Source of the DNA: an uncultured Methanomassiliicoccales archaeon
Lineage (GTDB): Archaea > Thermoplasmatota > Thermoplasmata > Methanomassiliicoccales > Methanomethylophilaceae
Assembly (NCBI GenBank): GCA_964504055.1
Contig: CAZDCU010000005.1
Span: 7,802 to 32,000, forward strand
DNA length: 24,199 bases
Direction: 5' to 3'
Under the pieces are notes generated by a model. It was given only the letters and a program-made list of their open reading frames with translations. It was not told where the DNA came from and made no database searches. Below, piece by piece: positions 1,507-22,420 of the stretch. Numbering within the stretch: position 1 is the first letter of the stretch; each line of letters starts with the position of its first letter. Made by a program: the position numbers and the translations under genes.

Positions 1507-4500
1507 ATGGAAGACTGCAGCGCCGTATACGACGAACTCAGGACACTCAGGGACGCACTCCGCAGGGAACATACCGTCGGCGGAAGGGAACCGAGAATCT
1601 GTTCAGATGAATCATTGTATGATATGGCGGAAAGGCTTCCCGCGAAGAAAGAAGATCTTCTGATGATCAAAGGTATAGGAGATACCTTTGCGGAAAAATA
1701 CGGGGAGAGTTTCCTTCTCATTACCCGTAAATATATCAGAACTGCGGCGAGATCTGTACCGCTTACAGGTGCATCCGAAAATGCTCTGAAGGATCTTCAG
1801 AAGAAGTTAACCGATATAAGCAGAGGAAATCCCCTGCTGTACTGTCCCAGAATGTCAAAGAGCAGAATGTGCGACCTGACTTCTTTCGGTATTTACAATC
1901 CCGCCGATGCAATCGGCGGGGAAGAGAAATTCCTCTGCGACATCACCGATAAAGAAAAATACGAAGGACTGAACCTGATTTACAGGGAAGCACTCCGCGA
2001 TCTGAGAGAAAAGGGAATTACAGACCTCTTTACGGCATATCCCTTCGCCGACGGATATCTTTCCGAAGATTTCCGCATAATGGCTCCGTTGATGCTGTTT
2101 CCCGTAAAACTGAAAAGAAACAATCACGCTTTCAGTCTTTCATACGACGATTCGAGAGACCCTGTCTTCAACAACACTCTCGTACTCGCAGCGATGAGAA
2201 CAAACAGGAAAGAAGGAGCATTGCCTGACTGTGTGATTGACGATATTGAAAATATCTCTGAAAAAATGATGTCTTTCTACCGTGAAAACGGCATAGTTCT
2301 CAAAGACACAGAACATAAAGTCATTAAATTCACAGGACCCGAAAGTAAAGATAAACTCACAGTAAGACACAACCTCGTCCTCGGAAGATTCCCCCTTCAT
2401 TCCAATTCGATTCAGAGAGATTTTGACTCATTGGCAACAAAGGAAAACATCAACAGAATTCTTAACGATTTGATATCAAATCCCGAAAACGAACCCGAAG
2501 ATCTCACTGTGTCAGGTCCCGATGTAAAGGAGAGAGATATCACTTACATCAATCACCTGAACAGCGCTCAGGAGAAGGTAATCGAAGCACTTGTTTCCGA
2601 AGACGGAATCGTCGTTCAGGGACCTCCGGGAACAGGTAAATCTCAGGTAATCACGGGAATAATCACAACTGCGATTAACGAAGGAAAAACCGTTTTAATG
2701 GTCTCGGAGAAGAAAACGGCATTGGATGTAGTCCATTCCCGTCTCGGAAATCTTTCAAAATACACAATGATGATTGATGATGTCTCCGACAAGGATCTTT
2801 TCTACAGTCAGCTGAAGATAATGCTCGATCTCCCTCCCGATATGAGAACATCTCCCGCCGAAATCGATCCTATTTCGGATAAAATCGAAAATCACATCTC
2901 CGAACTCACCCGTATCGCCGACGGAATGTACAGGCCCGATGCATTCGGAATAGAACCGTACAGACTGTATTCTCTCGTAAAGAAAGTGGATCTTAACGAT
3001 CCGAAAGAATATGAAAGGTATATTCTTCTCAAAGACAACATCTCTTCCACTTTACTGAACATCGATTTTTCTCAGTTAAATGAATCTTACACGCATTTCA
3101 CCGAGAAGAAAGCTGTAGACGATCTCAGAACATACTACCAATGCCTCGACGCAAACCCGTGGATGGCATACATCAGAAGAAATCTCACCGATTTTGAGTT
3201 AAGGAGTTTAAAATCGGATTTACGGGGTTTATCCAAGACTTCACGCAGTTACAACTCCATGGACTTCTCCGACAGACTCTTCGGAAAAGGACAGATGATG
3301 AGGACGGCGACAGCCGTCCTCAACAGATACTTCACCAACTACAACGCAAAACATATCGACCAGTTACTGAACGATGCCGAAAACACGTTGGAATCCCTGG
3401 ATATGTATCCGGAATATGCAGAAAAACTGTCTTCATACGAAAAACTCCCCAGAATCCAAAGAATGTACGGAGAAAATATCATCTCCGTAAACACGAAGAT
3501 TCCTTCAAGTTACGAAATGAGCAACGACGAACTCTTCGCATTCATTCTGATGGATCATCTCAGAAGATTCGAAGAGGAAAACGCAGATCTTCTTTCCGAT
3601 ATCGATTCTTTCGAAACTATAAGGAATGAAGTAGACGCAGATATCTCCGACAAAAGAAAAGCAACCGAAGACAGAGTCGGATTCATTCTCAGGGATTCAT
3701 TAAAAGCGGTAACGGAATCGAAAATGATTTCGGAAATGCGCAGAATCGCCGAGAGTAAACGCAGATGGTCGGTAAACAGATTCATCTCGAGATTCGGTTC
3801 GGATTTGTTCAGAGGGATCAGAGTCTGGCTCATGACTCCCGAAGCAGTCTCGGAATTACTTCCGTTGGAGATGGGATTATTCGATTTACTTGTGTTTGAC
3901 GAAGCTTCCCAAATGTACGTAGAGAAAGGAATTCCTTCGATCTACCGTGCGAAGAAAGTCGCCGTCGCGGGAGATCACAAGCAGTTACGTCCTTCAAGTC
4001 TCGGAAGCGGAAGATGGACTTCCGATTCCGACGAAGGCACCGACGAAGACAGCTTATTGGACCTCGCAAGAAAGAGATACGACTCCGTAATGCTCGATTT
4101 CCATTACAGGTCAAAGTACGAAGAACTGATAGCATTCTCAAATTACGCTTTCTACAACGGAAGACTGCACGTATCCCCGAATGTAGACATTCCTTCGGTA
4201 CCTCCGATTGAAACACATCTCGTGAAAAATGCGTTATGGGAGGACAGATGCAACCGTAAGGAAGCGGAAGAAACCGTATCTCTTCTTCAGAATATTCTTA
4301 CAAACCGTGAAAACAACGAAAGCATCGGAATAATCACTTTCAACACGTCCCAGAGGGATTTGATCTACGACATAATCGAAGAAAGATGTCATAAAGACAG
4401 AGAATTCTGCGATATAATCAAAAAAGAATCCGAACGCAGGGAAAACGGAGAAGACACGGGATTGTTCCTGAAAAACATCGAATCCGTTCAGGGAGACGAA

Positions 4501-5148
4501 AGAGACATCATAATCTTCTCAGTCGGTTACGCCAAAAACAGATCGGGAAAGATAGTAAGAACCTTCGGCTGGCTCAATAACCTCGGAGGAGAAAACCGTC
4601 TCAACGTAGCGATAAGCCGCGCAAAGAGAAAAATTCACATTGTGACATCATTCCTCCCCGAAGAATTAGACGTATCGGACAGCAGGAACGAAGGTCCGAG
4701 ATTACTGAAAAAATACCTCGAATACGCATTCGCGGTCAGTTCCCGTAACAGAGACGGAGAAGAAAAAATCCTCAGTTCTCTTTCCGTTAAGGAAGAAGTA
4801 GCATACGATTCCTCATCCGTCTTCAGCGATCAGATCTGTAAATCCCTCAAAGCAAGAGGATACGACGCGGAAACCGACTTCGGTATCGGCGGTTACAGTA
4901 TCGACGTAGTCGTAAAAGACGGAAACAGATACGTTTTGGGAATAGAATGCGACAATTCCCTCTACGCCGGAGCGGCATCCACAAGAGAAAGAGACTACCA
5001 CAGACAGAAATATCTCGAATCGAGAGGATGGAAAATCCGCAGGGTTTGGAGTAACAAGTGGTGGAACAATCCCGAAAAAGAAACCGATGCAATCGTTTCT
5101 CTCTTAAAATCGGAAGGCTGCAATCCTCGGACAATGCGAACAATATAA
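1507..5148 (+). CDS. HRDC / DUF4011-like / Upf1-like SF1 helicase (AAA_11-AAA_12 type) / DUF559-Vsr-like endonuclease fusion protein
   Basis: 1213-aa ORF. aa ~5-75 are HRDC-like (YDELRTLRDALR...IKGIGDTFAEKYGESFL). aa ~95-310 are DUF4011-like (ISRGNPLLYCP..., LGRFPLHSNSIQRDF). Walker A GPPGTGKS is at nt 2620-2643, followed by a ~420-aa insert and then DEASQM (nt 3898-3915), GDHKQLRP, VQGDERDIIIFS and RLNVAISRAKRKIHIV. The C-terminal GYSIDVVVKDGNRYVLGIECD...RDYHRQKYLESRGWKIRRVW (nt ~4891-5050) looks like the Vsr/DUF559 PD-(D/E)xK fold. Confidence 0.85.
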   Translation: MEDCSAVYDELRTLRDALRREHTVGGREPRICSDESLYDMAERLPAKKEDLLMIKGIGDTFAEKYGESFLLITRKYIRTAARSVPLTGASENALKDLQKKLTDISRGNPLLYCPRMSKSRMCDLTSFGIYNPADAIGGEEKFLCDITDKEKYEGLNLIYREALRDLREKGITDLFTAYPFADGYLSEDFRIMAPLMLFPVKLKRNNHAFSLSYDDSRDPVFNNTLVLAAMRTNRKEGALPDCVIDDIENISEKMMSFYRENGIVLKDTEHKVIKFTGPESKDKLTVRHNLVLGRFPLHSNSIQRDFDSLATKENINRILNDLISNPENEPEDLTVSGPDVKERDITYINHLNSAQEKVIEALVSEDGIVVQGPPGTGKSQVITGIITTAINEGKTVLMVSEKKTALDVVHSRLGNLSKYTMMIDDVSDKDLFYSQLKIMLDLPPDMRTSPAEIDPISDKIENHISELTRIADGMYRPDAFGIEPYRLYSLVKKVDLNDPKEYERYILLKDNISSTLLNIDFSQLNESYTHFTEKKAVDDLRTYYQCLDANPWMAYIRRNLTDFELRSLKSDLRGLSKTSRSYNSMDFSDRLFGKGQMMRTATAVLNRYFTNYNAKHIDQLLNDAENTLESLDMYPEYAEKLSSYEKLPRIQRMYGENIISVNTKIPSSYEMSNDELFAFILMDHLRRFEEENADLLSDIDSFETIRNEVDADISDKRKATEDRVGFILRDSLKAVTESKMISEMRRIAESKRRWSVNRFISRFGSDLFRGIRVWLMTPEAVSELLPLEMGLFDLLVFDEASQMYVEKGIPSIYRAKKVAVAGDHKQLRPSSLGSGRWTSDSDEGTDEDSLLDLARKRYDSVMLDFHYRSKYEELIAFSNYAFYNGRLHVSPNVDIPSVPPIETHLVKNALWEDRCNRKEAEETVSLLQNILTNRENNESIGIITFNTSQRDLIYDIIEERCHKDREFCDIIKKESERRENGEDTGLFLKNIESVQGDERDIIIFSVGYAKNRSGKIVRTFGWLNNLGGENRLNVAISRAKRKIHIVTSFLPEELDVSDSRNEGPRLLKKYLEYAFAVSSRNRDGEEKILSSLSVKEEVAYDSSSVFSDQICKSLKARGYDAETDFGIGGYSIDVVVKDGNRYVLGIECDNSLYAGAASTRERDYHRQKYLESRGWKIRRVWSNKWWNNPEKETDAIVSLLKSEGCNPRTMRTI

Positions 5149-8612: not shown

Positions 8613-9339
8613 TGAAATTCCCGAGTTTAAGAAACCGATTCTTATCGAAGGTTTACCGGGTGTCGGTAACGTAGGTAAGATTGCTGCGGATTTCATCGCG
8701 GAAAAACTGAATGCAGTGAGATTCGCTACCGTATACTCAGACAGTTTCCCTCCGCAGGTCACGTTGGATAACGAGTGCGTTATCGACATGGCATGCAACG
8801 AACTCTACTATGCGAAAGCGGGAGATAAGGACATCATTCTTCTTCTGGGAGAATATCAGGGAACGACTCCCGAAGGACAGTATCTGATCTGTGAGGATTT
8901 AATGAAAGAAGTCTTCATAAGATTCGATGTTTCGAGGATTATCACACTCGGGGGATACGGTACAGGTAAAATGGCCGACTCGCCGAGAGTTTTGGGCGCA
9001 GTGTCAGATGCCGAATTAAAAGAAGATCTGGAGAAACACGGCGTTGTATTCTCTCCGGGAGAACCCGCGGGAGGAATTGTGGGTGCATCCGCACTTCTTG
9101 TGGGTTTCGGTAAGATTTACGGTATTCCTTCACAGTGTCTTATGGGCGAAACATCGGGATATTTCGTCGATTACAAGAGCGGAATTGCATTGCTGAATGT
9201 CCTTGAATCGATACTCGGTATCGAGTTGGACAAATCCGAACTGAACGACAAATGTCAGCAGATCGACGAGCTTACTGCAAAAGTCAAAGAGATGGAAGCA
9301 GGCCAGCAGAAACACGCAGACCTGGGCTACATCGGATGA
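8575..9339 (+). CDS. PAC2-family proteasome assembly chaperone-like protein (COG1938 type)
   Basis: 254-aa ORF with PILIEGLPGVGNVGKIAADFI near the N-terminus, in the usual position after nop10 in archaeal clusters. Start 8575 or 8584; either overlaps the nop10 3' end. Confidence 0.75.
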   Translation: MGKMGNCTTIIYDEIPEFKKPILIEGLPGVGNVGKIAADFIAEKLNAVRFATVYSDSFPPQVTLDNECVIDMACNELYYAKAGDKDIILLLGEYQGTTPEGQYLICEDLMKEVFIRFDVSRIITLGGYGTGKMADSPRVLGAVSDAELKEDLEKHGVVFSPGEPAGGIVGASALLVGFGKIYGIPSQCLMGETSGYFVDYKSGIALLNVLESILGIELDKSELNDKCQQIDELTAKVKEMEAGQQKHADLGYIG

Positions 9340-9379
9340 GCCAGATTGCGGTTTTCCGTAATTCCGGCTTAACAGCAAG

Positions 9380-9389
9380 TTTAAATAAT
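9380..9389 (+). promoter_or_regulatory. candidate TATA box for tRNA-Tyr
   Basis: TTTAAATAAT ends 21 nt before tRNA position 1. Confidence 0.35.
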
Positions 9390-9410
9390 CTATCCTTATT
9401 GTCGGATTGT

Positions 9411-9521
9411 CCTCACTTAGCTTAGCCTGGCTAGAGCGGCTGACTGTAGAGAGTTCCCGGCAATGCCGGTACAGCCGCTGAAATCAGCAGATCCCCTGTT
9501 CAAATCAGGGAGTGGGGACCA
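9411..9521 (+). tRNA. tRNA-Tyr (anticodon GTA) with a ~33-nt intron and encoded CCA
   Basis: Hand-folded cloverleaf. Acceptor CCTCACT/AGTGGGG (C1-G72), D arm GCTT-AGCCTGGCTA-GAGC, anticodon stem GCTGA (9439-9443)/TCAGC (9484-9488), GTA at 9446-9448, variable AGATC, T arm CCCTG-TTCAAAT-CAGGG, A73, CCA 9519-9521. Forty nt separate the anticodon-stem strands, so an intron of about 9450-9482 (canonical 37/38 position) must be removed. The intron contains the hairpin CCGGC-AAT-GCCGG. Confidence 0.85.
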
Positions 9522-9613
9522 ATTATTATCACTGTTTCGGATGAGCGTGAGCTTTGTCGATAAATGCTACAAAATCCTGAATTTATTTATACGGCGCAAC
9601 GTGGTCTTCAATT

Positions 9614-9763
9614 ATGTCTAGATGTCCGTTCCCACGTGCATGTGATTGTCCGTTTGACGAAGGCTGTGCACATTGTCCATTAGATGGCCCATACTATGCC
9701 AGTAGGCCCGAAGATGTTCTCGGAGACTACGATCTCAGCGCATACAATGAAGATGAAATTTGA
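9614..9763 (+). CDS. hypothetical 49-aa Cys-rich, acidic-tailed peptide (below ORF-track cutoff)
   Basis: Own translation: MSRCPFPRACDCPFDEGCAHCPLDGPYYASRPEDVLGDYDLSAYNEDEI. ATTTATTTATA (9581-9591) ends 22 nt before the ATG, consistent with a leaderless archaeal mRNA. There is no homology evidence. Confidence 0.3.
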   Translation: MSRCPFPRACDCPFDEGCAHCPLDGPYYASRPEDVLGDYDLSAYNEDEI

Positions 9764-9841
9764 CTTTGCGTGCAACAGAGATTAAAATTGATACGTAACA
9801 CACCCCTATGGATTCCATTAGGAGCCTGTCAGTTTCCGCAT

Positions 9842-10255
9842 TCACGCCCTTAAACTTTTGAGAGACACGATATCTACGCCGATCATGCGTTTGAGTATGA
9901 CTTCACCGAGGAGGTTGAAGTTTTCCTCAGTCTCTTCCTTCTCCATCCAATCCATTGTGTATTCGCAAGCAAGTGTTGGACCAGCATTACCGAGATCTTC
10001 TCTAATCAGCCCGTCACAGTATTCACTGAAGGATTCATAGTATGCTTTCATACTGAATTCTCTCTGATGCTCCATTGCATATCTGCATGAGAATTTACAG
10101 AGGTCATCGTGATAGAAAACTGCGAAAAAACGGAGGAGATTATCCTCATCCATGTCCTCTATCGGTTGGAACGCTTTATTCAAAGCATAAATTTTCATTT
10201 TCAACTTTTCCAACTGATATTCACTCAAATCTTCCAACTTCATGTCCATTGACAC
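9842..10255 (-). CDS. hypothetical acidic 137-aa protein
   Basis: A clean ORF with no competing frame, Glu/Asp-rich (MSMDMKLEDLSEYQLEKLK...WMEKEETEENF), with no recognisable motif. Confidence 0.5.
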   Translation of the reverse strand: MSMDMKLEDLSEYQLEKLKMKIYALNKAFQPIEDMDEDNLLRFFAVFYHDDLCKFSCRYAMEHQREFSMKAYYESFSEYCDGLIREDLGNAGPTLACEYTMDWMEKEETEENFNLLGEVILKRMIGVDIVSLKSLRA

Positions 10256-10383
10256 CTTGTTGAATCTATGTTCGCAAGTCCTACATTAATTATCCCGGTG
10301 AAAGAGATATTGTCGACAAAATTTCAGCCATAATTGATTGACCTCACATACTCCTTAAGTGAATCAAAAACATCTCCACTTTC

Positions 10384-10467
10384 ATTTTAAATCTCATTTA
10401 AACATAATTTTCAAATTCGTTTAAATTTCATTTTAATATTTTAAATCTCAAATTAAATTTTAATATT
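10384..10467. repeat. AT-rich short direct repeats in a divergent intergenic spacer
   Basis: ATTTTAAATCTCA occurs exactly at 10384-10396 and 10438-10450. ATTTTAATATT occurs exactly at 10430-10440 and 10457-10467. There are also several TTTAAA cores. Confidence 0.6.
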
Positions 10468-10474
10468 CAGTTGA

Positions 10475-11494
10475 ATGTGTATTGTCGTGGAGAATATGAC
10501 TATGAAGTGCACTACGCCGGAAACAATCAGATTGCAGAGAGATACTGCCAACACTTCAACCGATCAGTTGATTGTGGAAAAAAGCGGAATGCAGAACATA
10601 AACATCGATACACTAAACAAATACAGAGATCTCTTCCGCTCCAATACACCCAATCACCCGTGGCTTAATGAATCGGATGAAGAATTACTCAAATTCCTCG
10701 GAGCCGCAGAAATCGAAAACGGAGAATTCAGATTGACAGTCGCGGGACTGTTAATGTTCGGTAACAGCTACGAAATAACGCACATTATTCCTAACTATCA
10801 CCTAGATTACAGAAGATATGAATGTAAAGATGAATGGACTGATAGATTGAATTCGGATACTGGCCTTTGGTCCGGAAACATCTTCGACTTCTTCATAGAC
10901 GTGTCCCGCAGAATAATAGATTCCGATGATCGCCCGTTTACACTTAATAATGATGTGATTAAAGCACAGAGAGAAATGATCCTCAACAGCTTAGTGCATG
11001 CTGATTATTTCAGAGGAGGAAACATTGTCGTCATATCTGAAAAAGACAGCCTGACCGTTCGTAATTCTGGTAACTTATGTATTTCTCCTGAGAAGTCCAT
11101 CGAAGGCGGATTCAGCAATCCACGCAACCCTGTACTGATGAAAATGTTTACTCTTGTGGGTTTTGCGAAACGTTCAGGCGACGGAATACGGAGCATATTC
11201 CGCACATGCAGAATGATGGGGCTCCCGCTTCCCGAAATAATCGAAGAATACAATCCGACTTGCGTCGTATTCAGAATGGGGTTGAAAGGTTCCGATGAAA
11301 TGGAACCGAGGATAATCCAATTGATGATTCAGAATGAAAAAATCGGCATAGATACAATAGCTGATTTTTTGGGTGTTTCTAAGAGTACAATTTCAAGAGA
11401 AATCACCAAAATGAAAAATGAAGGAAAAATCTCCAGAATAGGCGGATCTAAAGGTCGTTGGGTTGTTAATGAGCTAGAAAACGACGGTAATTGA
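10475..11494 (+). CDS. COG2865-type putative regulator: HATPase_c_4-like ATP-binding domain plus C-terminal wHTH, lacking the usual N-terminal AlbA_2 domain
   Basis: 339-aa ORF with LNESDEELLKFLGA...FRLTVAGLLMFGN, REMILNSLVHADY, GFSNPRNPVLMKMFTLVGFAKRSGDGIRSI and a C-terminal IADFLGVSKSTISREITKMKNEGKI. This matches the middle and C-terminal parts of AlbA_2/HATPase_c_4 proteins as I remember them. Confidence 0.65.
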   Translation: MCIVVENMTMKCTTPETIRLQRDTANTSTDQLIVEKSGMQNINIDTLNKYRDLFRSNTPNHPWLNESDEELLKFLGAAEIENGEFRLTVAGLLMFGNSYEITHIIPNYHLDYRRYECKDEWTDRLNSDTGLWSGNIFDFFIDVSRRIIDSDDRPFTLNNDVIKAQREMILNSLVHADYFRGGNIVVISEKDSLTVRNSGNLCISPEKSIEGGFSNPRNPVLMKMFTLVGFAKRSGDGIRSIFRTCRMMGLPLPEIIEEYNPTCVVFRMGLKGSDEMEPRIIQLMIQNEKIGIDTIADFLGVSKSTISREITKMKNEGKISRIGGSKGRWVVNELENDGN

Positions 11495-11500
11495 TGCCTT

Positions 11501-11567
11501 AATCGATTGCGATTGGAATGCTAATCGATTAGAATCGATTATAATTGATTAACATTCAAAATCGATT
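11501..11567. repeat. cluster of the 8-bp palindrome AATCGATT
   Basis: Perfect copies lie at 11501-11508, 11523-11530, 11533-11540 and 11560-11567. A degenerate AATTGATT lies at 11543-11550. The cluster sits in the 3' spacer between convergent genes. Confidence 0.8.
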
Positions 11568-11640
11568 TTCCTTTCAAGCGAAAATCAGTGCCTCACATTC
11601 AAAGACTTCTCAATTGCATCCCTACGTCTGCATATCGCAA

Positions 11641-12024
11641 TCAGAGCCTTGATTCAGCCTTCGACAGGAACTTCTCATTATCGACGATGAATCTCTCATG
11701 CTTTCCGGAACCGATTTCTCCAGCGGAATCTTTAACAATAACAGAAAAAACCAATCTTCTTCTGTCAATCTCAATCAACTCGGTCTCGCAGGTAACCTCG
11801 ATGCCGATCGGAGACGGGGCGGAGTGTGCTATGTCGAGATGCGTTCCGACTGTGCTCTTTCCCTCTTCGAGGAAAGGTGCAACACTCTGACTTGCCGTAG
11901 CTTCAATCAACGCAATCATCGCAGGCGTCGCATAAACGGGAAGCGTTCCGCTTCCGACTGCTTCGGCAGTGTTCTCTTTCACAACTTTTTCCGTCTTGGT
12001 TCCCTTAATCCCGACGTTCAACAT
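11641..12024 (-). CDS. hotdog-fold thioesterase (FlK/COG5496-like)
   Basis: 127-aa ORF with GSGTLPVYATPAMIALIEATA...GTHLDIAHSAPSPIG...RRRLVF, the layout of the small predicted-thioesterase family. Confidence 0.65.
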   Translation of the reverse strand: MLNVGIKGTKTEKVVKENTAEAVGSGTLPVYATPAMIALIEATASQSVAPFLEEGKSTVGTHLDIAHSAPSPIGIEVTCETELIEIDRRRLVFSVIVKDSAGEIGSGKHERFIVDNEKFLSKAESRL

Positions 12025-12070
12025 AATTTACACATACGAAATCGGGATTATAATGATAATTGACGAAAAA

Positions 12071-14824
12071 TCAACTAGAACCGTCACTTGATAACAAGTA
12101 ACCGTACAACTCTTCAGGAACTGATTTTCTCAATTTCAAAGGTATTCCAACAACTGTTTTTCCATCTAACGTTGTCTCTTCACAACGTTCAACAATTGGT
12201 TTTGCCTGCCCCATATAGTAGAAATCAATCCCTTCACTGTCACTTTTCTTAATGAATACAGGAATTATCAATCCATTCGACGATGATGCTAAGATTTCCC
12301 TTACATCTGCACTTGTCATATCGCGACCAGATTTAGACATCCAATCAAACACATCGCGATTTTCGAATCCTTCGACATATTTTGTAGTCGAACTAATATC
12401 ATCACCTTTGTGATATGTGACGAATATTGGGCAAGTGTTATCTCTCAACATATACCCATACATGGTGGAACTGCAATCCTTATCCCAATTCAAAATCCTG
12501 CAGACATCCTTACGTGAATATTTCTGATACAGTGTAAACCCGAGATCGTCCTTTTCTGCATAACGTGATGATGCTATTTCTTCACCACAATCTATTGCGT
12601 CTACTATCAGTCCCTTCATCTCCGGAACAGACAACATACTATCGAGAATCTTGCTTCTGCGAATGACGTTTCCATCCTTCACAATGAGAGCCCACGAAGG
12701 ATGCTGGCTCATTGTACTATTGGTATGATATTTACCGTCCAATACATTGATTGCCGACATCAAAGAATCTGTGTCGGGATCGTCGATAGAATCGATTGTT
12801 ACCTCAGACGAATCAACCATAGAACGAAGTACTTTCAGCTCTTGGATGCGCTTCCCATTCACAAAACTCGATATGAATGTCAAAGCATCGTCCTGTGCAT
12901 CAGACATTAAGAGATGTTCTTCTTTAGCCTTCATTCTAAAAGCGTTGAGATTATCCATTTTACTAACTAACACAGTAGGATCCAATGATCCTCCGTGGAG
13001 AAGATCACACAATGAAGGAGGGCGTCCAAGCCTCGATTTCATCAAAAGATACTCATTCTTCAGCATCTTCAACGTAGAAAGCTTGCTGCGATCTATGTTA
13101 GATAAAATCCTGTCTTCAACAATACGCTCAAAACCGACAGTAGAACAACCGGGAAGGAATCTACTCATCATGAATCTGCGCAGATTATCCTTATCGCAGG
13201 ATCTATCTCCTGAAAGGGCTGTCGGAATCATGAAATTGTTCTCATAATTTCCTATGAAATCCAAAACAATCAATGATTTATCAGGATCTTTTGTCCTACG
13301 CAATCCACGCCCAAGCTGTTGTATGAAGATTATTGCAGACTGTGTCGGACGTAGCATCAGAATCTGATTCACCAAAGGAATATCGACACCTTCGTTGAAG
13401 ACGTCACGTGTGAAGATGTAATCCAGGGAATTGTCATCATCTGATTGAAGGCATTGCATTGCTTTCTTTCTGTCTTCGATTGAATCTTTCGCACTTAACG
13501 CGACAGTCCTGTATCCGTACTCATTCATCATCTTCGAAAGTGCTTCACATTCCTCTATTGTACTGCAGAAAATCAATCCTCTGGCTCTGTCTCCGTACGG
13601 CCTGTAATACTCAGCTTTCTCAATGATATTCTTAATGCGTTCTTTACAGGTAAGCGCATTGAAAGTGGAATTGTCATCAATTAACTTTCCATCAACAGAT
13701 ATCTCTGATACTCCGTAGTAATGGAACGGACAGAGAATTCCCATCTCTAATGCCTTGTTAAGGCGAATTTCATATGCGACATTATAATCAAACATCTTGA
13801 AAACGTCTGCATCATCTGTCCTTTCAGGTGTTGCAGTCATTCCCAACATGAAACGTGGTCTGAAATACGAAATAATTTCAGAGTACATCGAAGCGGTGGA
13901 GTGATGTGCTTCGTCACACACGATATAATCGAAATGCTCTCTTGAGAATTTTTCTTTGTAATTTCTCATAGTCTGTATCGTTGCAAACAGACCATCGGAA
14001 TCCTCTTCCTTCCTGTTTCCTGTATAGAAACCAAGAGAATACTTGTCGCCCAAAACCTTGAAGTAGCTTTCTTTCGCATCCTTCAAGATATTTTCATTGT
14101 GAACCAAGAACAAGAAACGTTTCGGTGCAAATTCTTTCACATCAAACGCGGAAAGATATGTCTTACCTGTACCGGTCGCAGAAATCAAAATTGCACGTTG
14201 TTTCCCTTCTTCACGTAAATTACGCAACGAATCCAATGCTTCCATTTGCATCTGATTCGGCCTAGGAGCAGCATTCAACTGAACTACGGTCTGTTCCTTT
14301 GGAGGAATTATACGATGCACACGATAATTCTGTATCCATTCCTTCGTCAAAGGTACGGATAACTCCCACATTCTCTCAAATTCTGATTGAATCCTCTCTC
14401 TAAGAGGATCAACAACCGACGATAACTTAAGATTCCATTCCAAGTTCGTACACAATGCCTTATCAGTAAGATTGGAACTTCCAATGAACGCAGTCAAGGA
14501 ATCTTTCTCATAGAACATGTATCCCTTGGTGTGGAACATCTCTTCACATACTCTCACTTCGTGATCTGTATGTTCTAGCAACCAATCCAACGCATTCGGA
14601 TCGTTGAATCCTAAGTAATCTGTAGTGAGAATACGACCTTTGACACCACGTTCGTGAATGTCTCTGAAGGCCTGATATAATGTGCTCAGACCCCCCATAG
14701 TTATGAACGCGACTGAGAAATCGAATCTATCGCATGAACCCATATGCCTTATGAGCGAAGTATGTACTTTGACCCCTTTTGCATCGTCATTGTACAGAAG
14801 AATCGGTTCAGCATCGCCACTCAT
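12071..14824 (-). CDS. HKD (PLD-family) nuclease / SF2 DEAH helicase (ResIII + Helicase_C type) fusion with a long uncharacterised C-terminal region (DUF3427-type architecture)
   Basis: 917-aa ORF. A single HKD motif FHTKGYMF...FIGSSNLT (H98/K100, nt ~14533-14525). Walker A ISATGTGKT (nt ~14179-14159), VCDEAHH (nt ~13915-13904), MTATPER and QQLGRGLRR. About 350 aa follow the helicase core with no motif I can name. Confidence 0.85.
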   Translation of the reverse strand: MSGDAEPILLYNDDAKGVKVHTSLIRHMGSCDRFDFSVAFITMGGLSTLYQAFRDIHERGVKGRILTTDYLGFNDPNALDWLLEHTDHEVRVCEEMFHTKGYMFYEKDSLTAFIGSSNLTDKALCTNLEWNLKLSSVVDPLRERIQSEFERMWELSVPLTKEWIQNYRVHRIIPPKEQTVVQLNAAPRPNQMQMEALDSLRNLREEGKQRAILISATGTGKTYLSAFDVKEFAPKRFLFLVHNENILKDAKESYFKVLGDKYSLGFYTGNRKEEDSDGLFATIQTMRNYKEKFSREHFDYIVCDEAHHSTASMYSEIISYFRPRFMLGMTATPERTDDADVFKMFDYNVAYEIRLNKALEMGILCPFHYYGVSEISVDGKLIDDNSTFNALTCKERIKNIIEKAEYYRPYGDRARGLIFCSTIEECEALSKMMNEYGYRTVALSAKDSIEDRKKAMQCLQSDDDNSLDYIFTRDVFNEGVDIPLVNQILMLRPTQSAIIFIQQLGRGLRRTKDPDKSLIVLDFIGNYENNFMIPTALSGDRSCDKDNLRRFMMSRFLPGCSTVGFERIVEDRILSNIDRSKLSTLKMLKNEYLLMKSRLGRPPSLCDLLHGGSLDPTVLVSKMDNLNAFRMKAKEEHLLMSDAQDDALTFISSFVNGKRIQELKVLRSMVDSSEVTIDSIDDPDTDSLMSAINVLDGKYHTNSTMSQHPSWALIVKDGNVIRRSKILDSMLSVPEMKGLIVDAIDCGEEIASSRYAEKDDLGFTLYQKYSRKDVCRILNWDKDCSSTMYGYMLRDNTCPIFVTYHKGDDISSTTKYVEGFENRDVFDWMSKSGRDMTSADVREILASSSNGLIIPVFIKKSDSEGIDFYYMGQAKPIVERCEETTLDGKTVVGIPLKLRKSVPEELYGYLLSSDGSS

Positions 14825-14941
14825 GCAATCAGATCGATCTGGCTGTATTTCCGGTTTGCGATCCGTCAGGCGTTCTGCGGAATAACAATTGTTAATTATT
14901 AGACAATAATGTAAAATATTAAGGAATTAAATCAAGGTCAA

Positions 14942-15835
14942 ATGATATCGGGCGACGACAGAAGGATTGCAAAATATTTCGGCAGAAGAGAGTCCGCCGA
15001 CAGCGACATGATTGAGCTTCCTTCGTCGACTTTACACAACATTCTGAAAGGCACACTGATTTTCATCGCCGGAATCATGATTATTGTAGTCATTTGGCAG
15101 TGCTTCGCATGGTACTACAATGAAATGTATGACAGACTGCTGAAATTCCCGTATCCTCTGGAAACATTCGAGAGACTGTATCAGTACCTCTTCGAAGATA
15201 AGCTGATGTTCCGTACGACAATATACTCGCACATCGCCGCGAGTATGAAAAGATGGCTGACCGCATTCCTTCTCTCTACCCTGTGCGGTATCGCTCTGGG
15301 TATGTTCCTCGGATACTTCAAGAAAATATATCCCGTAGGAATCTCACCCGTGAATATCATTCAGATGATTCCGGGTATGGCGTGGCTCCCCGTTGTATTA
15401 CTTGTATTCGGAATCAGTGATGAGTCGGCAATTATGATCATCTTCCTGATTTCGTTTGTTATCATTACAATAAACGTCGCAGGAGGAATCAGAAAGATTC
15501 CCGATGTTTACATGAGAGCGGCGGATATGATGGGCGCAAACGCTGCAGTCAGAATTTTCAAGATTATGATACCCGCATCAACATTGGATATCGTAAACGG
15601 ACTGCGTCTCGGAATGGGAAGTGCGTGGAGAGTATTGATCTCGGCTGAAATGGTTATCGGAACTGGAATCGGATTGGGATTCGCCATTTCCGAACTCCGT
15701 GCACTGATAGATTACACCGGAGCGTTCGCATGTATCGCCGTAATCTGTGTCATCGGCCTGATTATTGACAAGTTAATCTTCGTAAACATCGAAAAGTACG
15801 TCCGCCACAAACTCGGCATGGACCAGGATGTGTGA
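14942..15835 (+). CDS. ABC transporter permease, NitT/TauT (SsuC/TauC-like) family
   Basis: 297-aa multi-TM ORF with ADMMGANAAVRIFKIMIPASTLDIVNGLRLGMGSAWRVLISAEM (the EAA-type loop region). An internal start at MIELPSS is possible. Confidence 0.85.
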   Translation: MISGDDRRIAKYFGRRESADSDMIELPSSTLHNILKGTLIFIAGIMIIVVIWQCFAWYYNEMYDRLLKFPYPLETFERLYQYLFEDKLMFRTTIYSHIAASMKRWLTAFLLSTLCGIALGMFLGYFKKIYPVGISPVNIIQMIPGMAWLPVVLLVFGISDESAIMIIFLISFVIITINVAGGIRKIPDVYMRAADMMGANAAVRIFKIMIPASTLDIVNGLRLGMGSAWRVLISAEMVIGTGIGLGFAISELRALIDYTGAFACIAVICVIGLIIDKLIFVNIEKYVRHKLGMDQDV

Positions 15836-16622: not shown

Positions 16623-17756
16623 ATGGATTCAAAGAAAATTCTGGTGATTGTCATCGCAGCGATTGTCGTCATCGGAGGAGTCACAGCTGTTGTTATCAAC
16701 AATAACAACAACGACAAAGGAAAAGAAACAATTTCCATCGCATACCTCAACCTCGGATACTACCCGTTCATGGTAGGATTTGAGAATGGATGGTTTGACA
16801 ACCTTGATTTCAATGTCAAACCGATTGTCGTTACGGGAAGCGGACAGGACGCGGTCAATGCAGTATTGGCCGGAGATGCAACAATGGCAGCAACAGGAGA
16901 TGCTCCGTTCATCAACACACTCGGAAAATACGGAAACGACATTGTCGGACTTACACAGTACACACAGTCATCCGGTTCACTCGCAGGACACATTTGGATT
17001 GCAAACAAGAGCTTGGAAGGTAAGCTCGATGCAATCGAGAAAGATGCAGACGGCGTTGTCTCCAACTCCGCAACAACAGCGGGACAGATCAAGAAAATCA
17101 CCGAAGATAAAGAAGGAAAAAATGGCGGCATCTTCTCTATCGGAGTTATCAACGGTTCGACAACCCACACCAACATCAGGAAATGGTGCCTCTCCAACGG
17201 CCTCACATACGATGAGGGTGCATTGGGTGCAACACTCAAAACAGATGTTGATGTACACATCATTCAGGTCCCCAAGGGATCCGATGCAAGTGTCCTCATC
17301 ACATACCTCGAGAATGTAGATGCACTCGCAACAAACAAGACACTGAACGGAAACATTATGTCATCCACAGCCGGTGACAAAGTCTACGCATTCGGTGACT
17401 CGTCCGCACTCAGCGGAACATCATACAGCGTTCTCTGTACCACACAGGCCAACTACGATAAGTACAAGGATCAGATGATACAGGTTCTCGAAGTCCTCAA
17501 AAATATCGAAGAGTGGATTAAGAAGAATGTTGACGAATCCGCAAAAATCTGTGCAGATCTCAGCAATGACAAAGCAGAAACCATCGTTAAGAACATCAAC
17601 GGTGCGAACTACAAAGTCATCTGGGACACCAACGAAAAGAACTACGACAGCTGGGTCCAAACTGCGAAGATCAACGGTTATAACATCTCGGTAGAGACAT
17701 TCATCAATGCATGTCCCTGCAAAGATACTATAAACGCCTGGTACACAACAGCGTAA
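16623..17756 (+). CDS. membrane-anchored ABC substrate-binding protein (NMT1/SsuA/TauA-like)
   Basis: 377-aa ORF with the N-terminal TM helix ILVIVIAAIVVIGGVTAVVI, then an alpha/beta binding-protein-like sequence. It is third in the transporter operon, and GGAGGG precedes the ATG. Confidence 0.7.
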   Translation: MDSKKILVIVIAAIVVIGGVTAVVINNNNNDKGKETISIAYLNLGYYPFMVGFENGWFDNLDFNVKPIVVTGSGQDAVNAVLAGDATMAATGDAPFINTLGKYGNDIVGLTQYTQSSGSLAGHIWIANKSLEGKLDAIEKDADGVVSNSATTAGQIKKITEDKEGKNGGIFSIGVINGSTTHTNIRKWCLSNGLTYDEGALGATLKTDVDVHIIQVPKGSDASVLITYLENVDALATNKTLNGNIMSSTAGDKVYAFGDSSALSGTSYSVLCTTQANYDKYKDQMIQVLEVLKNIEEWIKKNVDESAKICADLSNDKAETIVKNINGANYKVIWDTNEKNYDSWVQTAKINGYNISVETFINACPCKDTINAWYTTA

Positions 17757-17800: not shown

Positions 17801-18181
17801 TCAGTTTTGTTTCATCTCTTCGTACTTGAGATTCGAACCTCTGCTGACATCTACGGGATATTTTGCATTGTTTTTTGCAATCTTTTCATTCAACGCGGTG
17901 CAGAGATCGATATTATTCATCTGAGCAAATCTGAGAACAAAGTAAAACACATCAGCCAATTCGTCCCTGATGTCTTCGGATCTTGATGCATCCTCAAACA
18001 ATGCTTTACTCTGTTCCTCGGTTTTGAATCTGAATATCTCCAGGAGCTCCGCCGATTCGGTTGCCATGCCTATCGCAAGATCCTTGGGATTGTGGAACAT
18101 GTCCCAATCCCTCTCTTCGCAGAATTTCTTAACGGTATCTTTCGCATGTTCAATCGTACACTCGGCATCGCCCGCTGTCAT
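17801..18181 (-). CDS. MazG-like nucleoside triphosphate pyrophosphohydrolase (DCTPP1/RS21-C6-like)
   Basis: 126-aa ORF with FCEERDWDMFHNPKDLAIGMATESAELLEIFRFK and IRDELADVFYFVLRFAQ, the EExxE...D metal-binding helices of the all-alpha NTP-PPase fold. Confidence 0.8.
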   Translation of the reverse strand: MTAGDAECTIEHAKDTVKKFCEERDWDMFHNPKDLAIGMATESAELLEIFRFKTEEQSKALFEDASRSEDIRDELADVFYFVLRFAQMNNIDLCTALNEKIAKNNAKYPVDVSRGSNLKYEEMKQN

Positions 18182-18209: not shown

Positions 18210-19133
18210 TTACTTTCCGTTCTCTACGGAAAATTCCGATCTGACAGCGGCGTTTGCCTCATCACGTAAACTCTCGAAAGGATCTTTGTATCTGAACCTC
18301 ACCGCCCTCGTACGACCTTCCTTGTGAAGTATTCCTCTCTCCGCCAAATCCGTAAGTTTCGCTCTTACCGACTGATCCTCAAGGCCGTCCGTCCACACAG
18401 ATGCATCCTGTATCGTGAATGTCCCGCTGCGTATACGCGAATGTTTAACGAACGAAATCTCATTTCCGTCCAAACCTGTTGTTATGTCCCTTTCGACACA
18501 GTATTCAGCCGTCTCGGAATATGCATCATACAGTACTGATATCAAATGTTCCAGAATCTCCTGAACCGTACTGTCCTCCGGAACAAGTTTGAACAATGCC
18601 GCATCGGTTTTGCACATCCCGATGTTTCCGAGGCCTGTCGCATACAGCAGTCTGTGCAGAAGTGCCGATGCTTCTCTCATACTCATGTACTGCGACATTT
18701 CACTGTAAAATACGGAAGCAGTCACCAGCGAATCGTACGGAGACGTATTCACGAAATCAATCAGTTCGGATTCTCCTTCTCTTACTATGATGATATCCGT
18801 TCCCAATATGTATGAGCACATCCGGCGCACATCCGAGACGTCCCACGGAAGATTTCCGAGACCGTCGGAGATACGTGCGTATATCAGATACAGTGCGCTC
18901 ACCTCGGAATCGCTCTGAGGTTCGGCCTCACCGCGGCATAATTTCATTACGACATCATACGGAACATCGATTTCATCTTCGGCGAGACTGCACGAGACAT
19001 TGTCCGCCAAAGCACCGTAGAGAAGATTCCCCATATCGTTCTCGCCGAGTATGAACTCCCCGAGCCTGTAATCCATGAAGCGGATTTCCTGTATCTTTTT
19101 CTGCAGTTCCGAATTGATAACGGCATCGATCAT
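18210..19133 (-). CDS. hypothetical protein with a possible degenerate Fic-like fold and a C-terminal winged-helix
   Basis: 307-aa ORF. By eye the spacing of blocks (SCSLAEDEI; SEVSALYLIYARI; IIIVREGE; SPYDSLVTASVFYSEMSQYMSMREASALLHRLLY) resembles a Fic domain, but the HxFx(D/E)GNGRxxR motif is absent. The C-terminal VRAKLTDLAERGILHKEGRTRAVRFRY looks like a wHTH. The gene call is solid. The fold assignment is weak. Confidence 0.55.
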   Translation of the reverse strand: MIDAVINSELQKKIQEIRFMDYRLGEFILGENDMGNLLYGALADNVSCSLAEDEIDVPYDVVMKLCRGEAEPQSDSEVSALYLIYARISDGLGNLPWDVSDVRRMCSYILGTDIIIVREGESELIDFVNTSPYDSLVTASVFYSEMSQYMSMREASALLHRLLYATGLGNIGMCKTDAALFKLVPEDSTVQEILEHLISVLYDAYSETAEYCVERDITTGLDGNEISFVKHSRIRSGTFTIQDASVWTDGLEDQSVRAKLTDLAERGILHKEGRTRAVRFRYKDPFESLRDEANAAVRSEFSVENGK

Positions 19134-19448: not shown

Positions 19449-20051
19449 TCATTCGAAGAAAATCTTCATGCGTTCCTCTCCTCTCTTGGATTCGATAAAC
19501 GCTTCGCGGTCGTCGTAATATGAACCGACTTCCTTCGGAATCTTCAGCAGACGGAGTATTACCGCAATAATCAACGCACCCGTAAACATCATACCTATGC
19601 TGAGTGTCGCGTCCTGTCCGTTAATCGGAAGAACAACCGTCATCAGATCGGAAAGATCTCCGAAGTTCATCACGATAACATATCTTATTGCACTGTAAAC
19701 GGAAACGAGTGTACAGAAAATCATACGGCCGATGTTTCCGCTTCTGTAGAATCCTCTGAAGAATGCGAGAGGTACCGTAACAATACCTGTCATCCACGCT
19801 CTCTTAAACAGAGCGATAAGACCTTCCGTATCGCATTTTGCGAGATAATCTTCGATTGAAGTTGTATCCACATCATATCCGAATGCAGCGACGAACGATC
19901 TGAGTGTTTCCGGTTCCGTAAGCATATCCGCAAGGAATTTGGGGATCAGCACAGCCAAAACCACCGCTATGAATGCACGTATGATTCCTCTGATAACGGA
20001 TCCGTAAACCCAGACGGCTTTGAATTCCCGTCCTTTGGAGACTTTGTTCAT
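19449..20051 (-). CDS. hypothetical polytopic membrane protein
   Basis: 200-aa ORF with several hydrophobic helices (IIRAFIAVVLAVLIP, MTGIVTVPLAFF, IFCTLVSVYSAIRYVIV, MMFTGALIIAVILRLL). Its ATGA start overlaps the stop of the upstream gene. Confidence 0.7.
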   Translation of the reverse strand: MNKVSKGREFKAVWVYGSVIRGIIRAFIAVVLAVLIPKFLADMLTEPETLRSFVAAFGYDVDTTSIEDYLAKCDTEGLIALFKRAWMTGIVTVPLAFFRGFYRSGNIGRMIFCTLVSVYSAIRYVIVMNFGDLSDLMTVVLPINGQDATLSIGMMFTGALIIAVILRLLKIPKEVGSYYDDREAFIESKRGEERMKIFFE

Positions 20052-21046
20052 GCGGATGCCCCCTCGAGATATGTCAGGAATTTTACAATCTGTTCGGCCT
20101 GATCTTTCTCTATTGTTACGACAGATCCGCTGTATGTGATTATGATCTTTCCGTCCTCATCCGTCATATCCTTGAGGAATGACGAAAGTGAATCATACGT
20201 ACCGAGATCGACTTTCACCGTTCCGAGTTCGCCTGAAACAGATGCAGATATGCCGAGACCGCAGATGTCTCCTCCGTCGATACTTGATATCAGATCCGCA
20301 ATGATCGAGGAACCGTCGCCCAATGAGATGTCGAAAGTTTCCGTACCCGTACTGCTGTCGATTGTAACGGTTGTGTTGGCAATACCCATCAGATTTCCGA
20401 GATTTCCGATCATACTGAAGGACATCAGGAATATGTACGAAACATTGAGATCCATCACAACGTCGCATCCCATCGCCTGAAGAACCGTAAAGGTAGACAT
20501 TGGAATAGAAACGGTAAGTTTCATCATTCCGCCGTTTATCTCGACTTTGGAATCGGTCATCGATTTGAAATCACCTTTTTCAAAATACAATTTGAGATCG
20601 GGTTTGGTGTACTTCGCCGCCATTTCGGATGTTTTCATGGTGACTGTAATGATTTTGTCATCATCCGTGGATTCGTCGACCATTATCATCCTTACGATTT
20701 TTCCGTTTTCGTCCGTTACGGAATAGGACGTTGCTCCTGCCGTCATGATATTGTCGGCAACGGTGTCGGCATCGTCCTTGGACCCCAAAGTCTCATGTGT
20801 CAGACCGTATACGACGATTCTTCCTCCTCTGTCGTACGCATTGGAGATATTCGTCGATACAGAACTCTCGGGCGTATCGTCCCTGATTATGAATACCGCA
20901 TCCTCGCCGATACTTATGTCGGCCGTAAGGTGTACTCCTCCGTCATCGATTTTGATAAAAACCGAAAGTAAAGGTGCCATCATGGCCAGAACGATTATCA
21001 GTACGGCTATGCCGACAATCAGTCTCGCCTTCGTCCTGTTCTTCAT
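20048..21046 (-). CDS. hypothetical N-terminally anchored extracytoplasmic protein
   Basis: 332-aa ORF with one N-terminal TM helix (LIVGIAVLIIVLAMMAPLLSVFI), then a Ser/Thr/Asp/Gly-rich, beta-looking sequence with no motif recognised. Confidence 0.65.
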   Translation of the reverse strand: MKNRTKARLIVGIAVLIIVLAMMAPLLSVFIKIDDGGVHLTADISIGEDAVFIIRDDTPESSVSTNISNAYDRGGRIVVYGLTHETLGSKDDADTVADNIMTAGATSYSVTDENGKIVRMIMVDESTDDDKIITVTMKTSEMAAKYTKPDLKLYFEKGDFKSMTDSKVEINGGMMKLTVSIPMSTFTVLQAMGCDVVMDLNVSYIFLMSFSMIGNLGNLMGIANTTVTIDSSTGTETFDISLGDGSSIIADLISSIDGGDICGLGISASVSGELGTVKVDLGTYDSLSSFLKDMTDEDGKIIITYSGSVVTIEKDQAEQIVKFLTYLEGASA

Positions 21047-21986: not shown

Positions 21987-22000
21987 TTTCAAAGAGGTGA

Positions 22001-22337
22001 CTGAGTATACCGATTGATTTCAACAATACGGAAGAGATCACCGTGCCGGGAATGAATAACGAAACCGGTACAATAAGTGCAAAGATGCATATCTGTAAGC
22101 AGTGAAAAATAATTCCGTGTTCTGTTCATCCCGGCAGTTCCATCGGTTATCATAAGCATGAAACCAGTGATGACATTAACTACGTAATTTCCGGTAACGG
22201 AAAAGCAATATGCGACGGACATGAAGAAATTCTGTATTGCAGGAGCCTGTCAGATATGCAGAAGGGGCTCGTCACACAGTATCGAAAATACCGGAAACAA
22301 AGACCTGATTCTGCTTACAGTTGTTGTGGAACAGTAA
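22001..22337 (+). pseudogene. decayed cupin-domain gene
   Basis: Own translation gives ...IDFNNTEEITVPGMNNETGTISAKMHICKQ, then an in-frame TGA (22103-22105), then KIIPCSVHPGSSIGYHKHETSDDINYVISGNGKAICDGHEEIL (cupin motif 1). A +1 frame change near 22232-22236 leads into IAGACQICRRGSSHSIENTGNKDLILLTVVVEQ* (cupin motif 2, stop 22335-22337). There is no canonical start after the upstream in-frame TGA (21998-22000). Confidence 0.7.
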
Positions 22338-22349
22338 TCCGAGCCTGGA

Positions 22350-22420
22350 AAGTTTTGTTCATTTTTTCCGGAAACTTCAATTCGGATTCAAGTTTTGTTC
22401 AAAATTTCCCGAAACTTTCA
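22350..22420. repeat. tandem ~30-nt imperfect direct repeat, each unit with AAGTTT...AAACTT dyad symmetry
   Basis: R1 22350-22379 is AAGTTTTGTTCATTTTTTCCGGAAACTTCA. R2 22390-22420 is AAGTTTTGTTCAAAATTTCCCGAAACTTTCA. R1 contains the 10-nt palindrome TTTCCGGAAA (22365-22374). Confidence 0.6.

Follow-up and report, generated by a model that had tools for sequence, protein, structure and literature searches.

A probable archaeal orthologue of the Type IV restriction endonuclease SauUSI in an uncultured Methanomassiliicoccales genome

What does a single archaeal protein do that carries a nuclease motif, a helicase core and a long C-terminal tail on one chain, and on which DNA would it act? The question is raised by a 917-codon gene in a 24,199-nucleotide stretch of contig CAZDCU010000005.1 (assembly GCA_964504055.1, an uncultured Methanomassiliicoccales archaeon), a stretch that we analysed in full and call the window. 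A preliminary description, made from the letters alone, took the gene for a candidate single-gene nucleic-acid immunity factor whose fused layout of phospholipase D (PLD) nuclease, superfamily 2 (SF2) helicase and DUF3427 was, to its author's knowledge, without an assigned function, in archaea above all. The first part of that proposal stands, in that the protein matches a proven restriction enzyme, SauUSI of Staphylococcus aureus, over its full length. The second part does not, since the layout is that of SauUSI itself (PMC3141236, PMC7913695, bioRxiv 10.1101/2025.10.16.682607) and is also covered by a standard Type IV model in the style of PADLOC/REBASE. The gene is very probably an archaeal orthologue of SauUSI, that is, a single-polypeptide, ATP-dependent Type IV modification-dependent restriction endonuclease.

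The PADLOC scan that the preliminary description had proposed found the model for Type IV methyl-directed restriction enzymes, mREase_IV (PDLC03658), with an E-value of 6e-214 and with model positions 25-951 of 953 covered. A phmmer search against PDB matched 7CLG, the S. aureus SauUSI structure, at E=7.1e-206 in a single stretch that pairs query residues 3-911 with chain residues 25-952. With E-values near 1e-200 to a solved structure, an open reading frame (ORF) that arose by chance is ruled out. Over 895 aligned positions the protein is 41.2% identical to SauUSI, and by domain the identity is 44.5% in the nuclease, 48.0% in the ATPase, 23.6% in the helical coupler and 40.0% in the target-recognition domain (TRD). 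The Pfam domains are PLDc_2 (residues 47-153), ResIII (189-335), Helicase_C (414-509) and DUF3427 (653-910, E=1.5e-69), the last of which had been guessed beforehand; precomputed annotation adds PF26350 (DUF8090). The ORF and every motif quoted for it in the preliminary description were recovered in the ORF listing and in a check of motif positions. The features of the gene are as follows.

12071..14824, minus strand: complete SauUSI-family gene of 917 aa, with an ATG start, the stop codon at 12071-12073 and no interruption of the frame.
14318..14824, minus strand: PLD-family nuclease domain, residues 1-169, N-terminal (Pfam PLDc_2).
14465-14536, minus strand: single HKD motif, FHTKGYMF...GSSNLT, residues 97-120, position checked.
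13079..14317, minus strand: SF2 helicase-like ATPase/translocase, residues 170-582 (Pfam ResIII and Helicase_C).
14159-14173, minus strand: motif I, GTGKT, residues 218-222, position checked.
13904-13915, minus strand: motif II, DEAH, residues 304-307, position checked.
13820-13837, minus strand: motif III, TATPER, residues 330-335, position checked.
13298-13321, minus strand: motif VI, QQLGRGLR, residues 502-509, position checked.
12530..13078, minus strand: helical coupler segment, aligned to SauUSI coupler residues 618-805 and helical, with high confidence scores, in the structure model described below.
12074..12529, minus strand: SRA-like TRD, residues 766-917, the C-terminal portion of DUF3427.
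12341-12460, minus strand: predicted 5-methylcytosine (5mC) pocket within the TRD, Y791, F801, V802 and W828, with E818 and Y789.
14825..14941, no strand: divergent intergenic region of 117 bp, GC 0.36, between the SauUSI-like gene and an ABC permease gene; it presumably holds both promoters.

SauUSI was characterised in 2011 as a Type IV enzyme that needs ATP and cuts at S5mCNGS in DNA with 5mC or 5-hydroxymethylcytosine (5hmC). Its parts are a PLD nuclease, a helicase/ATPase and, for specificity, a DUF3427 domain, and the same study counted over 150 orthologues among bacteria and archaea (PMC3141236). The 2021 structure, 7CLG, showed nuclease domains like that of BfiI that hold a dimer together, along with a helical coupler and a TRD with the SRA fold, and the TRD was predicted to flip 5mC into a pocket of Y831, F841, I842 and W868, with D858 touching the base (PMC7913695). 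According to a preprint of 2025, recognition of 5mC triggers loop translocation, and repeated cycles of cleavage shred the DNA (bioRxiv 10.1101/2025.10.16.682607). The enzyme family is thus already well understood, and it is the archaeal copy itself that is uncharacterised. The window protein has the four domains of SauUSI (locus SAUSA300_2431) in the same order, PLD nuclease, SF2 ATPase, helical coupler and SRA-like TRD (DUF3427), and neither gene is linked to a cognate methyltransferase. The window protein differs in being 36 residues shorter, chiefly at the N-terminus and in linkers, and in belonging to an archaeal host, a gut Methanomassiliicoccales; in addition, a NUDIX gene (SAUSA300_2432) adjoins SauUSI, while none adjoins the window copy.

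For a residue-level comparison, SauUSI 25-952 was rebuilt from the printed alignment and aligned with 119 homologues, giving 120 sequences. H98, K100, N118 and E129 correspond to SauUSI H119, K121, N139 and E150 and are invariant in 120/120 sequences; alanine substitution at any one of the four SauUSI positions abolishes activity (PMC3141236). SF2 motifs I, II, III and VI are intact. The pocket residues Y791, F801, V802 and W828 occupy the places of SauUSI Y831, F841, I842 and W868, and across the alignment the Tyr and the Phe are invariant, the Trp is nearly so, and Val and Ile interchange.

The roughly 350 residues beyond the helicase core had been described as an orphan tail with no recognisable catalytic motif, and also as a possible sensor of modified bases. 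An AlphaFold2 model of residues 570-917, built from an alignment of 34 homologues, reached a pLDDT of 90.6 and a pTM of 0.87. Its top Foldseek match in PDB is 7CLG (E=1.3e-16, TM score 0.70), followed by complexes of the SRA domains of KRYPTONITE/SUVH4, SUVH6 and SUVH5 with methylated DNA (E=3e-5 to 8e-4) and then by the 5mC-dependent enzymes AspBHI and MspJI. As modelled, the tail is a SauUSI-type helical coupler followed by an SRA-like reader of methylated cytosine. It is accordingly no orphan, and the guess at a modified-base sensor was a good one, though for SauUSI the function was already known.

A mechanism for the archaeal protein can be carried over from the type enzyme. Two chains would pair through their PLD nuclease domains, bringing together two HKD half-sites so that both strands could be cut; that a single HKD motif must dimerise had been anticipated in the preliminary description, and the BfiI-like dimer of SauUSI bears this out (PMC7913695). 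The C-terminal SRA-like domain would scan DNA and flip 5mC or 5hmC into the pocket of Y791, F801, V802 and W828, with E818 contacting the base. Recognition of the modified base would activate the SF2 ATPase through the helical coupler, and the motor would then translocate along double-stranded DNA, extruding a loop and bringing the nuclease to distal sites, where double-strand breaks would be made. The host would be spared simply because its own DNA lacks the modification, and a host of that kind would need no cognate methyltransferase. Indeed, the genes called in the 24 kb window and in the 25.5 kb source contig include none with a methyltransferase domain, and a specificity subunit gene neither adjoins the SauUSI-like gene nor occurs elsewhere in the window, which extends the earlier remark that neither lay adjacent. 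Dimerisation, ATP dependence, specificity for 5mC/5hmC and a preferred flanking context are what we would expect of the archaeal protein by analogy. The context S5mCNGS is a property of SauUSI and is not predictable for the archaeal copy.

Several observations weigh against an orthologue that behaves as SauUSI does. SauUSI D858, predicted to hydrogen-bond to the flipped cytosine, is replaced by E818, and M829, the intercalating finger, by Y789; specificity could therefore differ from that of SauUSI, even though both states are common in the family. The immediate neighbours of the gene, an ABC transporter and a thioesterase, are not defence genes. In the nearest relative, the gene is syntenic with its flanks and has diverged together with them. 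The NUDIX partner of the family, treated below, was found nowhere in the window by tblastn with four queries. The literature searched holds no biochemistry on any archaeal member of the SauUSI family.

The alternative that survives best accepts the same machine, a PLD dimer with an SF2 translocase and a flip-out reader, and differs only in what is read: another modified base or context than that of SauUSI, for example a strong preference for 5hmC, some other 5-substituted cytosine of archaeal viruses, or N4-methylcytosine. The substitutions at E818 and Y789 speak for it, as does the low identity of the TRD (only 40%) and of the coupler (24%), and the residues that set the context are unreadable from the apo structure (PMC7913695). 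On the other side, the aromatic cage for the 5-methyl group (Y791, F801, V802, W828) is fully conserved, the structural neighbours of the tail are all readers of 5mC or 5hmC, and the Glu and Tyr states are widespread, including among relatives of the experimentally tested clade. Glu is found at the position of E818 in 47/120 homologues and Tyr at that of Y789 in 102/120, so that SauUSI itself is the outlier at its position 829. We regard such an altered specificity as unlikely, and a SauUSI-like reader of 5mC/5hmC as the better account of the conserved cage.

Whether the gene is a working part of the genome, and how it came to lie where it does, can be judged from its relatives, which we cite by locus numbers of our own. 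The nearest, L022, has 89% nucleotide identity, and there too the gene lies between the ABC permease gene and a gene for an FlK-type thioesterase. Between the window and L022 the gene has a ratio of nonsynonymous to synonymous divergence (dN/dS) of 0.049 at a dS of 0.58, and two flanking genes have a dS of 0.47-0.61 and a similarly low dN/dS. A ratio of 0.049 over that synonymous distance implies long-term purifying selection, and by this measure the intact gene is functional and has passed vertically down both lineages since their split. Synteny and co-divergence with L022 further mean that any acquisition was not recent. Comparison between strains, proposed earlier as a source of presence/absence evidence, yielded none: exact-sequence look-ups of both flanking genes returned only contigs with the gene in the same slot and hence no empty site, and L022 is collinear through the gene. 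Collinearity breaks just beyond FlK, near 11641.

At greater distances the distribution is patchy and island-like. The closest species-level genomes with a homologue are other Methanomassiliicoccales, among them Ca. Methanoprimaticola hominis, at 62-64% identity, followed by gut Firmicutes at about 40%. In average-linkage clustering on Kimura distances the window protein falls with about 36 sequences, among them the copies from Methanomassiliicoccales for which a listed protein could be identified. The flanking genes of the window are absent within 10 kb of the homologue in three other genomes of the order. Around those three copies and two others lie genes for GmrSD, RloB/AAA_21, Fic, NYN and DndB with a Dam-like methylase, and HipA, transposase, BrxC/D, Cas3-like helicase and McrC-like genes also lie near the five. 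The homologue is AT-richer than its flanks in 5/6 other archaeal loci (GC 0.30 vs 0.52 in L037, 0.43 vs 0.58 in L036) and about equal to them in the sixth, L034. Over the longer timescale the gene behaves like a mobile defence gene, usually placed in defence islands in more distant Methanomassiliicoccales.

Two of these relatives deserve separate mention. At L037 8001-10850, in a 1.6 Mb archaeal chromosome, a 52%-identical homologue with a GC of 0.297 (GC at third codon positions, GC3, 0.197) vs 0.520 in its flanks stands by itself, flanked by PMSR and aldehyde dehydrogenase genes, and has no NUDIX gene beside it; it looks like a recent horizontal acquisition. At L003 10001-12699, in Ca. Methanoprimaticola hominis Mx06, the homologue is recovered by tblastn in two segments that overlap at about 10354-10363, which suggests a frameshift, either in a pseudogene or through an assembly error.

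The distribution bears on a second alternative, which is implied by such names as 'repair helicase Rad25', 'RadD-like' and 'DEAD/DEAH box helicase': that the protein is a housekeeping helicase-nuclease of DNA repair. The helicase core does match models of RadD, XPB/Rad25 and UvrB weakly, some sources name homologues Rad25 or SrmB, and in both the window and its nearest relative the gene lies among metabolic genes with which it has co-diverged. These matches, however, cover the SF2 core only and fall far under the curated cut-offs (86 bits for RadD, against 720), whereas over its full length the protein matches an enzyme proven to restrict. Furthermore, the location is not conserved across Methanomassiliicoccales, is often a defence island and goes with foreign composition, and the tail is a reader of methylated cytosine. 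A repair function is very improbable on this evidence, and a SauUSI-type restriction enzyme remains the reading on which we proceed.

The composition of the window gene itself had been described as that of an isolated AT-rich block. Its GC of 0.408 and GC3 of 0.414 are both the lowest among the 23 ORFs of the window, the others averaging 0.463 +/- 0.025 and 0.528 +/- 0.045 (z about -2.2 and -2.5), so that the contrast is real and modest. The block is not isolated. The ORFs at 9842-10255 (GC 0.411) and 10475-11494 (0.413) are also AT-rich, as is the spacer between them, and the FlK gene that separates these low-GC stretches is host-like at 0.492. The low-GC zone is therefore wider than the SauUSI-like gene and is broken by a host-like gene. 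The idea of an inserted element with tRNA genes or repeats at its edges was considered and set aside: ARAGORN found no tRNA in the window, the repeats around 9000-15200 are short matches of low identity such as chance would produce, and no element boundaries are definable.

The preliminary description had also noted that no partner ORF is adjacent. This is true of the window copy and untrue of the family, in which a NudG-like NUDIX partner is the rule. The first two archaeal loci that we examined each have a NUDIX/NUDIX_4 gene immediately at the 5' end of the homologue. We searched by tblastn with NUDIX-partner queries, starting from the proteins of those two loci, in 20 genome loci and then in 80 added metagenome loci; the loci listed for NUDIX linkage are L002-L021, L036, L038 and L040-L119 (examples of the gene are L034 9580-9999 and L007 9300-9662). 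A homologous NUDIX gene adjoins the restriction gene in 20/20 genome loci, and one lies within 400 bp in 92 of the 97 evaluable loci, 5' of the restriction gene in 48 and 3' of it in 44. The window is among the five exceptions; its 117-bp upstream spacer is too small for the NUDIX gene found upstream in other Methanomassiliicoccales copies, and the nearest relative, L022, gave no NUDIX match either. At least 60 SauUSI-like genes had already been linked to a putative pyrophosphohydrolase by Xu et al. 2011 (PMC3141236). The NUDIX gene is a frequent companion of the SauUSI family and not a defining feature of it, because deletion of nudix in S. aureus leaves restriction working (Monk et al. 2012, PMC3312211).

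Loss of the NUDIX gene, which accompanies 95% of homologues, or conflict with a host methyltransferase might suggest a third alternative, a decaying or inactive remnant, and natural inactivation does occur in the family (a premature stop in sauUSI of S. aureus RN4220, PMC3312211; the apparently frameshifted copy in L003), but this is the least credible alternative of all, given an intact frame with all catalytic and motor motifs, the dN/dS of 0.049 over a dS of 0.58 between two lineages that both lack NUDIX, and the S. aureus deletion mutant that still restricts (PMC3312211).

What the partner does is a separate matter. The nearest solved relatives of the NUDIX protein are CTP/dCTP pyrophosphohydrolases, 3GWY (E=2e-26) and 2RRK (E. 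coli NudG), and the best-known substrate of NudG is 5-methyl-dCTP. As a long shot, the partner might serve self-protection by clearing 5-methyl-dCTP released from shredded methylated DNA, so preventing incorporation of 5mC and self-restriction; the window lineage would then be a rare NUDIX-less case that tolerates the risk or is covered by MazG. This self-protection idea was not found in the literature searched.

The MazG gene in question, and the genes transcribed with the same orientation upstream of it, are as follows.

17801-18181, minus strand: MazG-like pyrophosphatase of 126 aa, DCTPP1/RS21-C6-type (PDB 6SQW, E=2e-17), 3 kb from the SauUSI-like gene.
18210-19133, 19449-20051 and 20048-21046, minus strand: co-oriented ORFs upstream of the MazG-like gene, a run conserved in L022.

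The MazG-like gene ends this run of co-oriented genes (332, 200, 71 and 307 aa), the three largest of which have no Pfam or PADLOC matches. No evidence ties it to the restriction gene. Near homologues elsewhere, MazG-like genes occur in 8 loci, within about 300 bp in 4 of them, and in all six MazG loci with a large flanking ORF that were scanned the MazG gene pairs with a DUF2075/Schlafen-group-3 helicase, which in 4/6 carries an N-terminal GIY-YIG domain. The window holds no gene for the DUF2075 helicase of this module, and in none of the four remaining loci without NUDIX does a MazG gene lie within 10 kb. Replacement of NUDIX by MazG in the window was accordingly rejected as unsupported.

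The two-gene module is an observation in its own right. A MazG-like protein of about 109 aa and a DUF2075 helicase recur immediately next to NUDIX-SauUSI-like genes in various metagenome loci, in agreement with a DUF3427-DUF2075 association mentioned in PMC6765204, and the two may form an uncharacterised defence pair. Its positions are these.

L071 12889-14913: MazG and DUF2075 module.
L011 2399-4461: MazG and DUF2075 module.
L069 475-2530: MazG and DUF2075 module.
L074 7260-9445: MazG and DUF2075 module.
L093 4453-6665: MazG and DUF2075 module.
L092 917-3435: MazG and DUF2075 module.

Comparison with other known systems sets the SauUSI family apart in each case. The DUF3427-PD-(D/E)XK fusions (the group of McaZI, BwiMMI and EfaL9I) and YenY4I share the DUF3427 module that senses modified cytosine; enzymes of this kind restrict the 5hmC phage T4gt and tend toward defence islands (PMC6765204). 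Their nuclease is of the PD-(D/E)XK type and they have no helicase motor, hence are ATP-independent, whereas the window protein joins a PLD nuclease to an SF2 translocase. McrBC, MspJI and AspBHI likewise cleave only where cytosine is modified, and MspJI and AspBHI use SRA-like flip-out domains. McrBC, though, has a GTP-driven AAA+ motor and a PD-(D/E)XK nuclease, and MspJI and AspBHI have no motor. NgoAVII and CglI also bring together a PLD-family nuclease and a helicase-like SF2 ATPase, which hydrolyses ATP for cleavage (PMC7913695). In those systems the two activities are separate subunits rather than a single chain, and unmodified sequence is read through a B3-like domain, with a methyltransferase in attendance, where the window protein has an SRA-like reader of modified bases. 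BfiI and Nuc also carry one HKD motif per chain and form the active site across a dimer, and the SauUSI dimer interface is BfiI-like (PMC7913695). Both lack the motor and the methyl reader, and BfiI is a Type IIS enzyme independent of metal and ATP.

The preliminary description had likened the protein to DISARM, in which a PLD-fold nuclease (DrmC) and an SF2 helicase (DrmA) work together in defence. The resemblance is distant: DISARM is a multi-gene, methyltransferase-linked system. DrmC models match the protein at E=0.007-0.02 over 22-50 residues, and neither DrmA, DrmB, DrmMI/II, DrmE nor a methyltransferase is present in the window. With DrmC scores marginal and the partner genes absent from the window, a DISARM assignment was rejected. 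Assignment as the R subunit of a Type I or Type III system was rejected as well, since restriction-subunit models match the SF2 core only, with scores far under their cut-offs (EcoAI R, 105 bits against 550; HsdR, 18 against 285), and the window holds no Mod, HsdM or HsdS gene.

Neighbouring genes in the window, among them eIF2-alpha, ribosomal proteins S27e and L44e, PAC2 and diphthamide synthase, mark the host as an archaeon. The divergent ABC permease gene lies 117 bp upstream of the SauUSI-like gene and the FlK-type thioesterase gene 46 bp downstream. One further gene is a candidate for defence.

1507-5148, plus strand: putative second defence gene of 1213 aa, with HRDC, DUF4011, an SF1 helicase core (AAA_11/AAA_12) and a C-terminal endonuclease of the MTES_1575/DUF559 type.

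Its product matches the PADLOC candidate models PDC-S37 (E=9e-159, with partial coverage) and Hhe (E=6e-82), and it is likely a second defence gene, about 7 kb from the SauUSI-like gene.

A variable region, 10256-11494, corresponding to L022 13323-15715, lies just past FlK. It consists of the very AT-rich 219-bp spacer (10256-10474, GC 0.265) and the gene that the spacer precedes, which encodes a 339-aa protein with HATPase_c_4 and helix-turn-helix domains. This protein lacks the N-terminal SLFN_AlbA_2 domain of its full-length relatives, which have 551 aa in L034 and 536 aa in L036. The L022 counterpart has 74% nucleotide identity and is longer, and extra HATPase_c_4 fragments occur there. 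Of the other flanking genes of the window, the HATPase_c_4 gene alone recurs near homologues (at 38% identity in L036, and weakly in L002, L047 and L072). We do not claim linkage to SauUSI-like genes, for which this recurrence is insufficient.

Two further differences between the window and L022 were noted. The putative substrate-binding protein of the ABC transporter, encoded at 16623-17756 (plus strand), has 73% amino-acid identity to its L022 counterpart and a dN/dS of 0.40, against 92-95% and 0.05-0.11 for four measured neighbours; the fast change may come from diversifying selection acting on an exposed surface protein, or from allelic replacement. L022 also has an extra AAA_14/DUF4143 ATPase gene (1662-2843) where the window has 408 bp of intergenic DNA (21987-22394), a second indel between the two lineages.

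The window gene and its relatives, which now carry such labels as 'DEAD/DEAH box helicase' or 'Rad25', should be named SauUSI-family Type IV restriction endonucleases. With its enzyme class understood structurally and at the single-molecule level, the gene raises no new mechanistic question; the loose thread that remains is the family's NUDIX partner and its absence from a few lineages, that of the window among them. For the organism, the assignment predicts that this lineage of gut Methanomassiliicoccales rejects cytosine-methylated DNA. The gene also bears on which viruses and plasmids enter these archaea, and transforming them would need DNA from Dcm-negative hosts free of C5-methylases, as it does for S. 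aureus.

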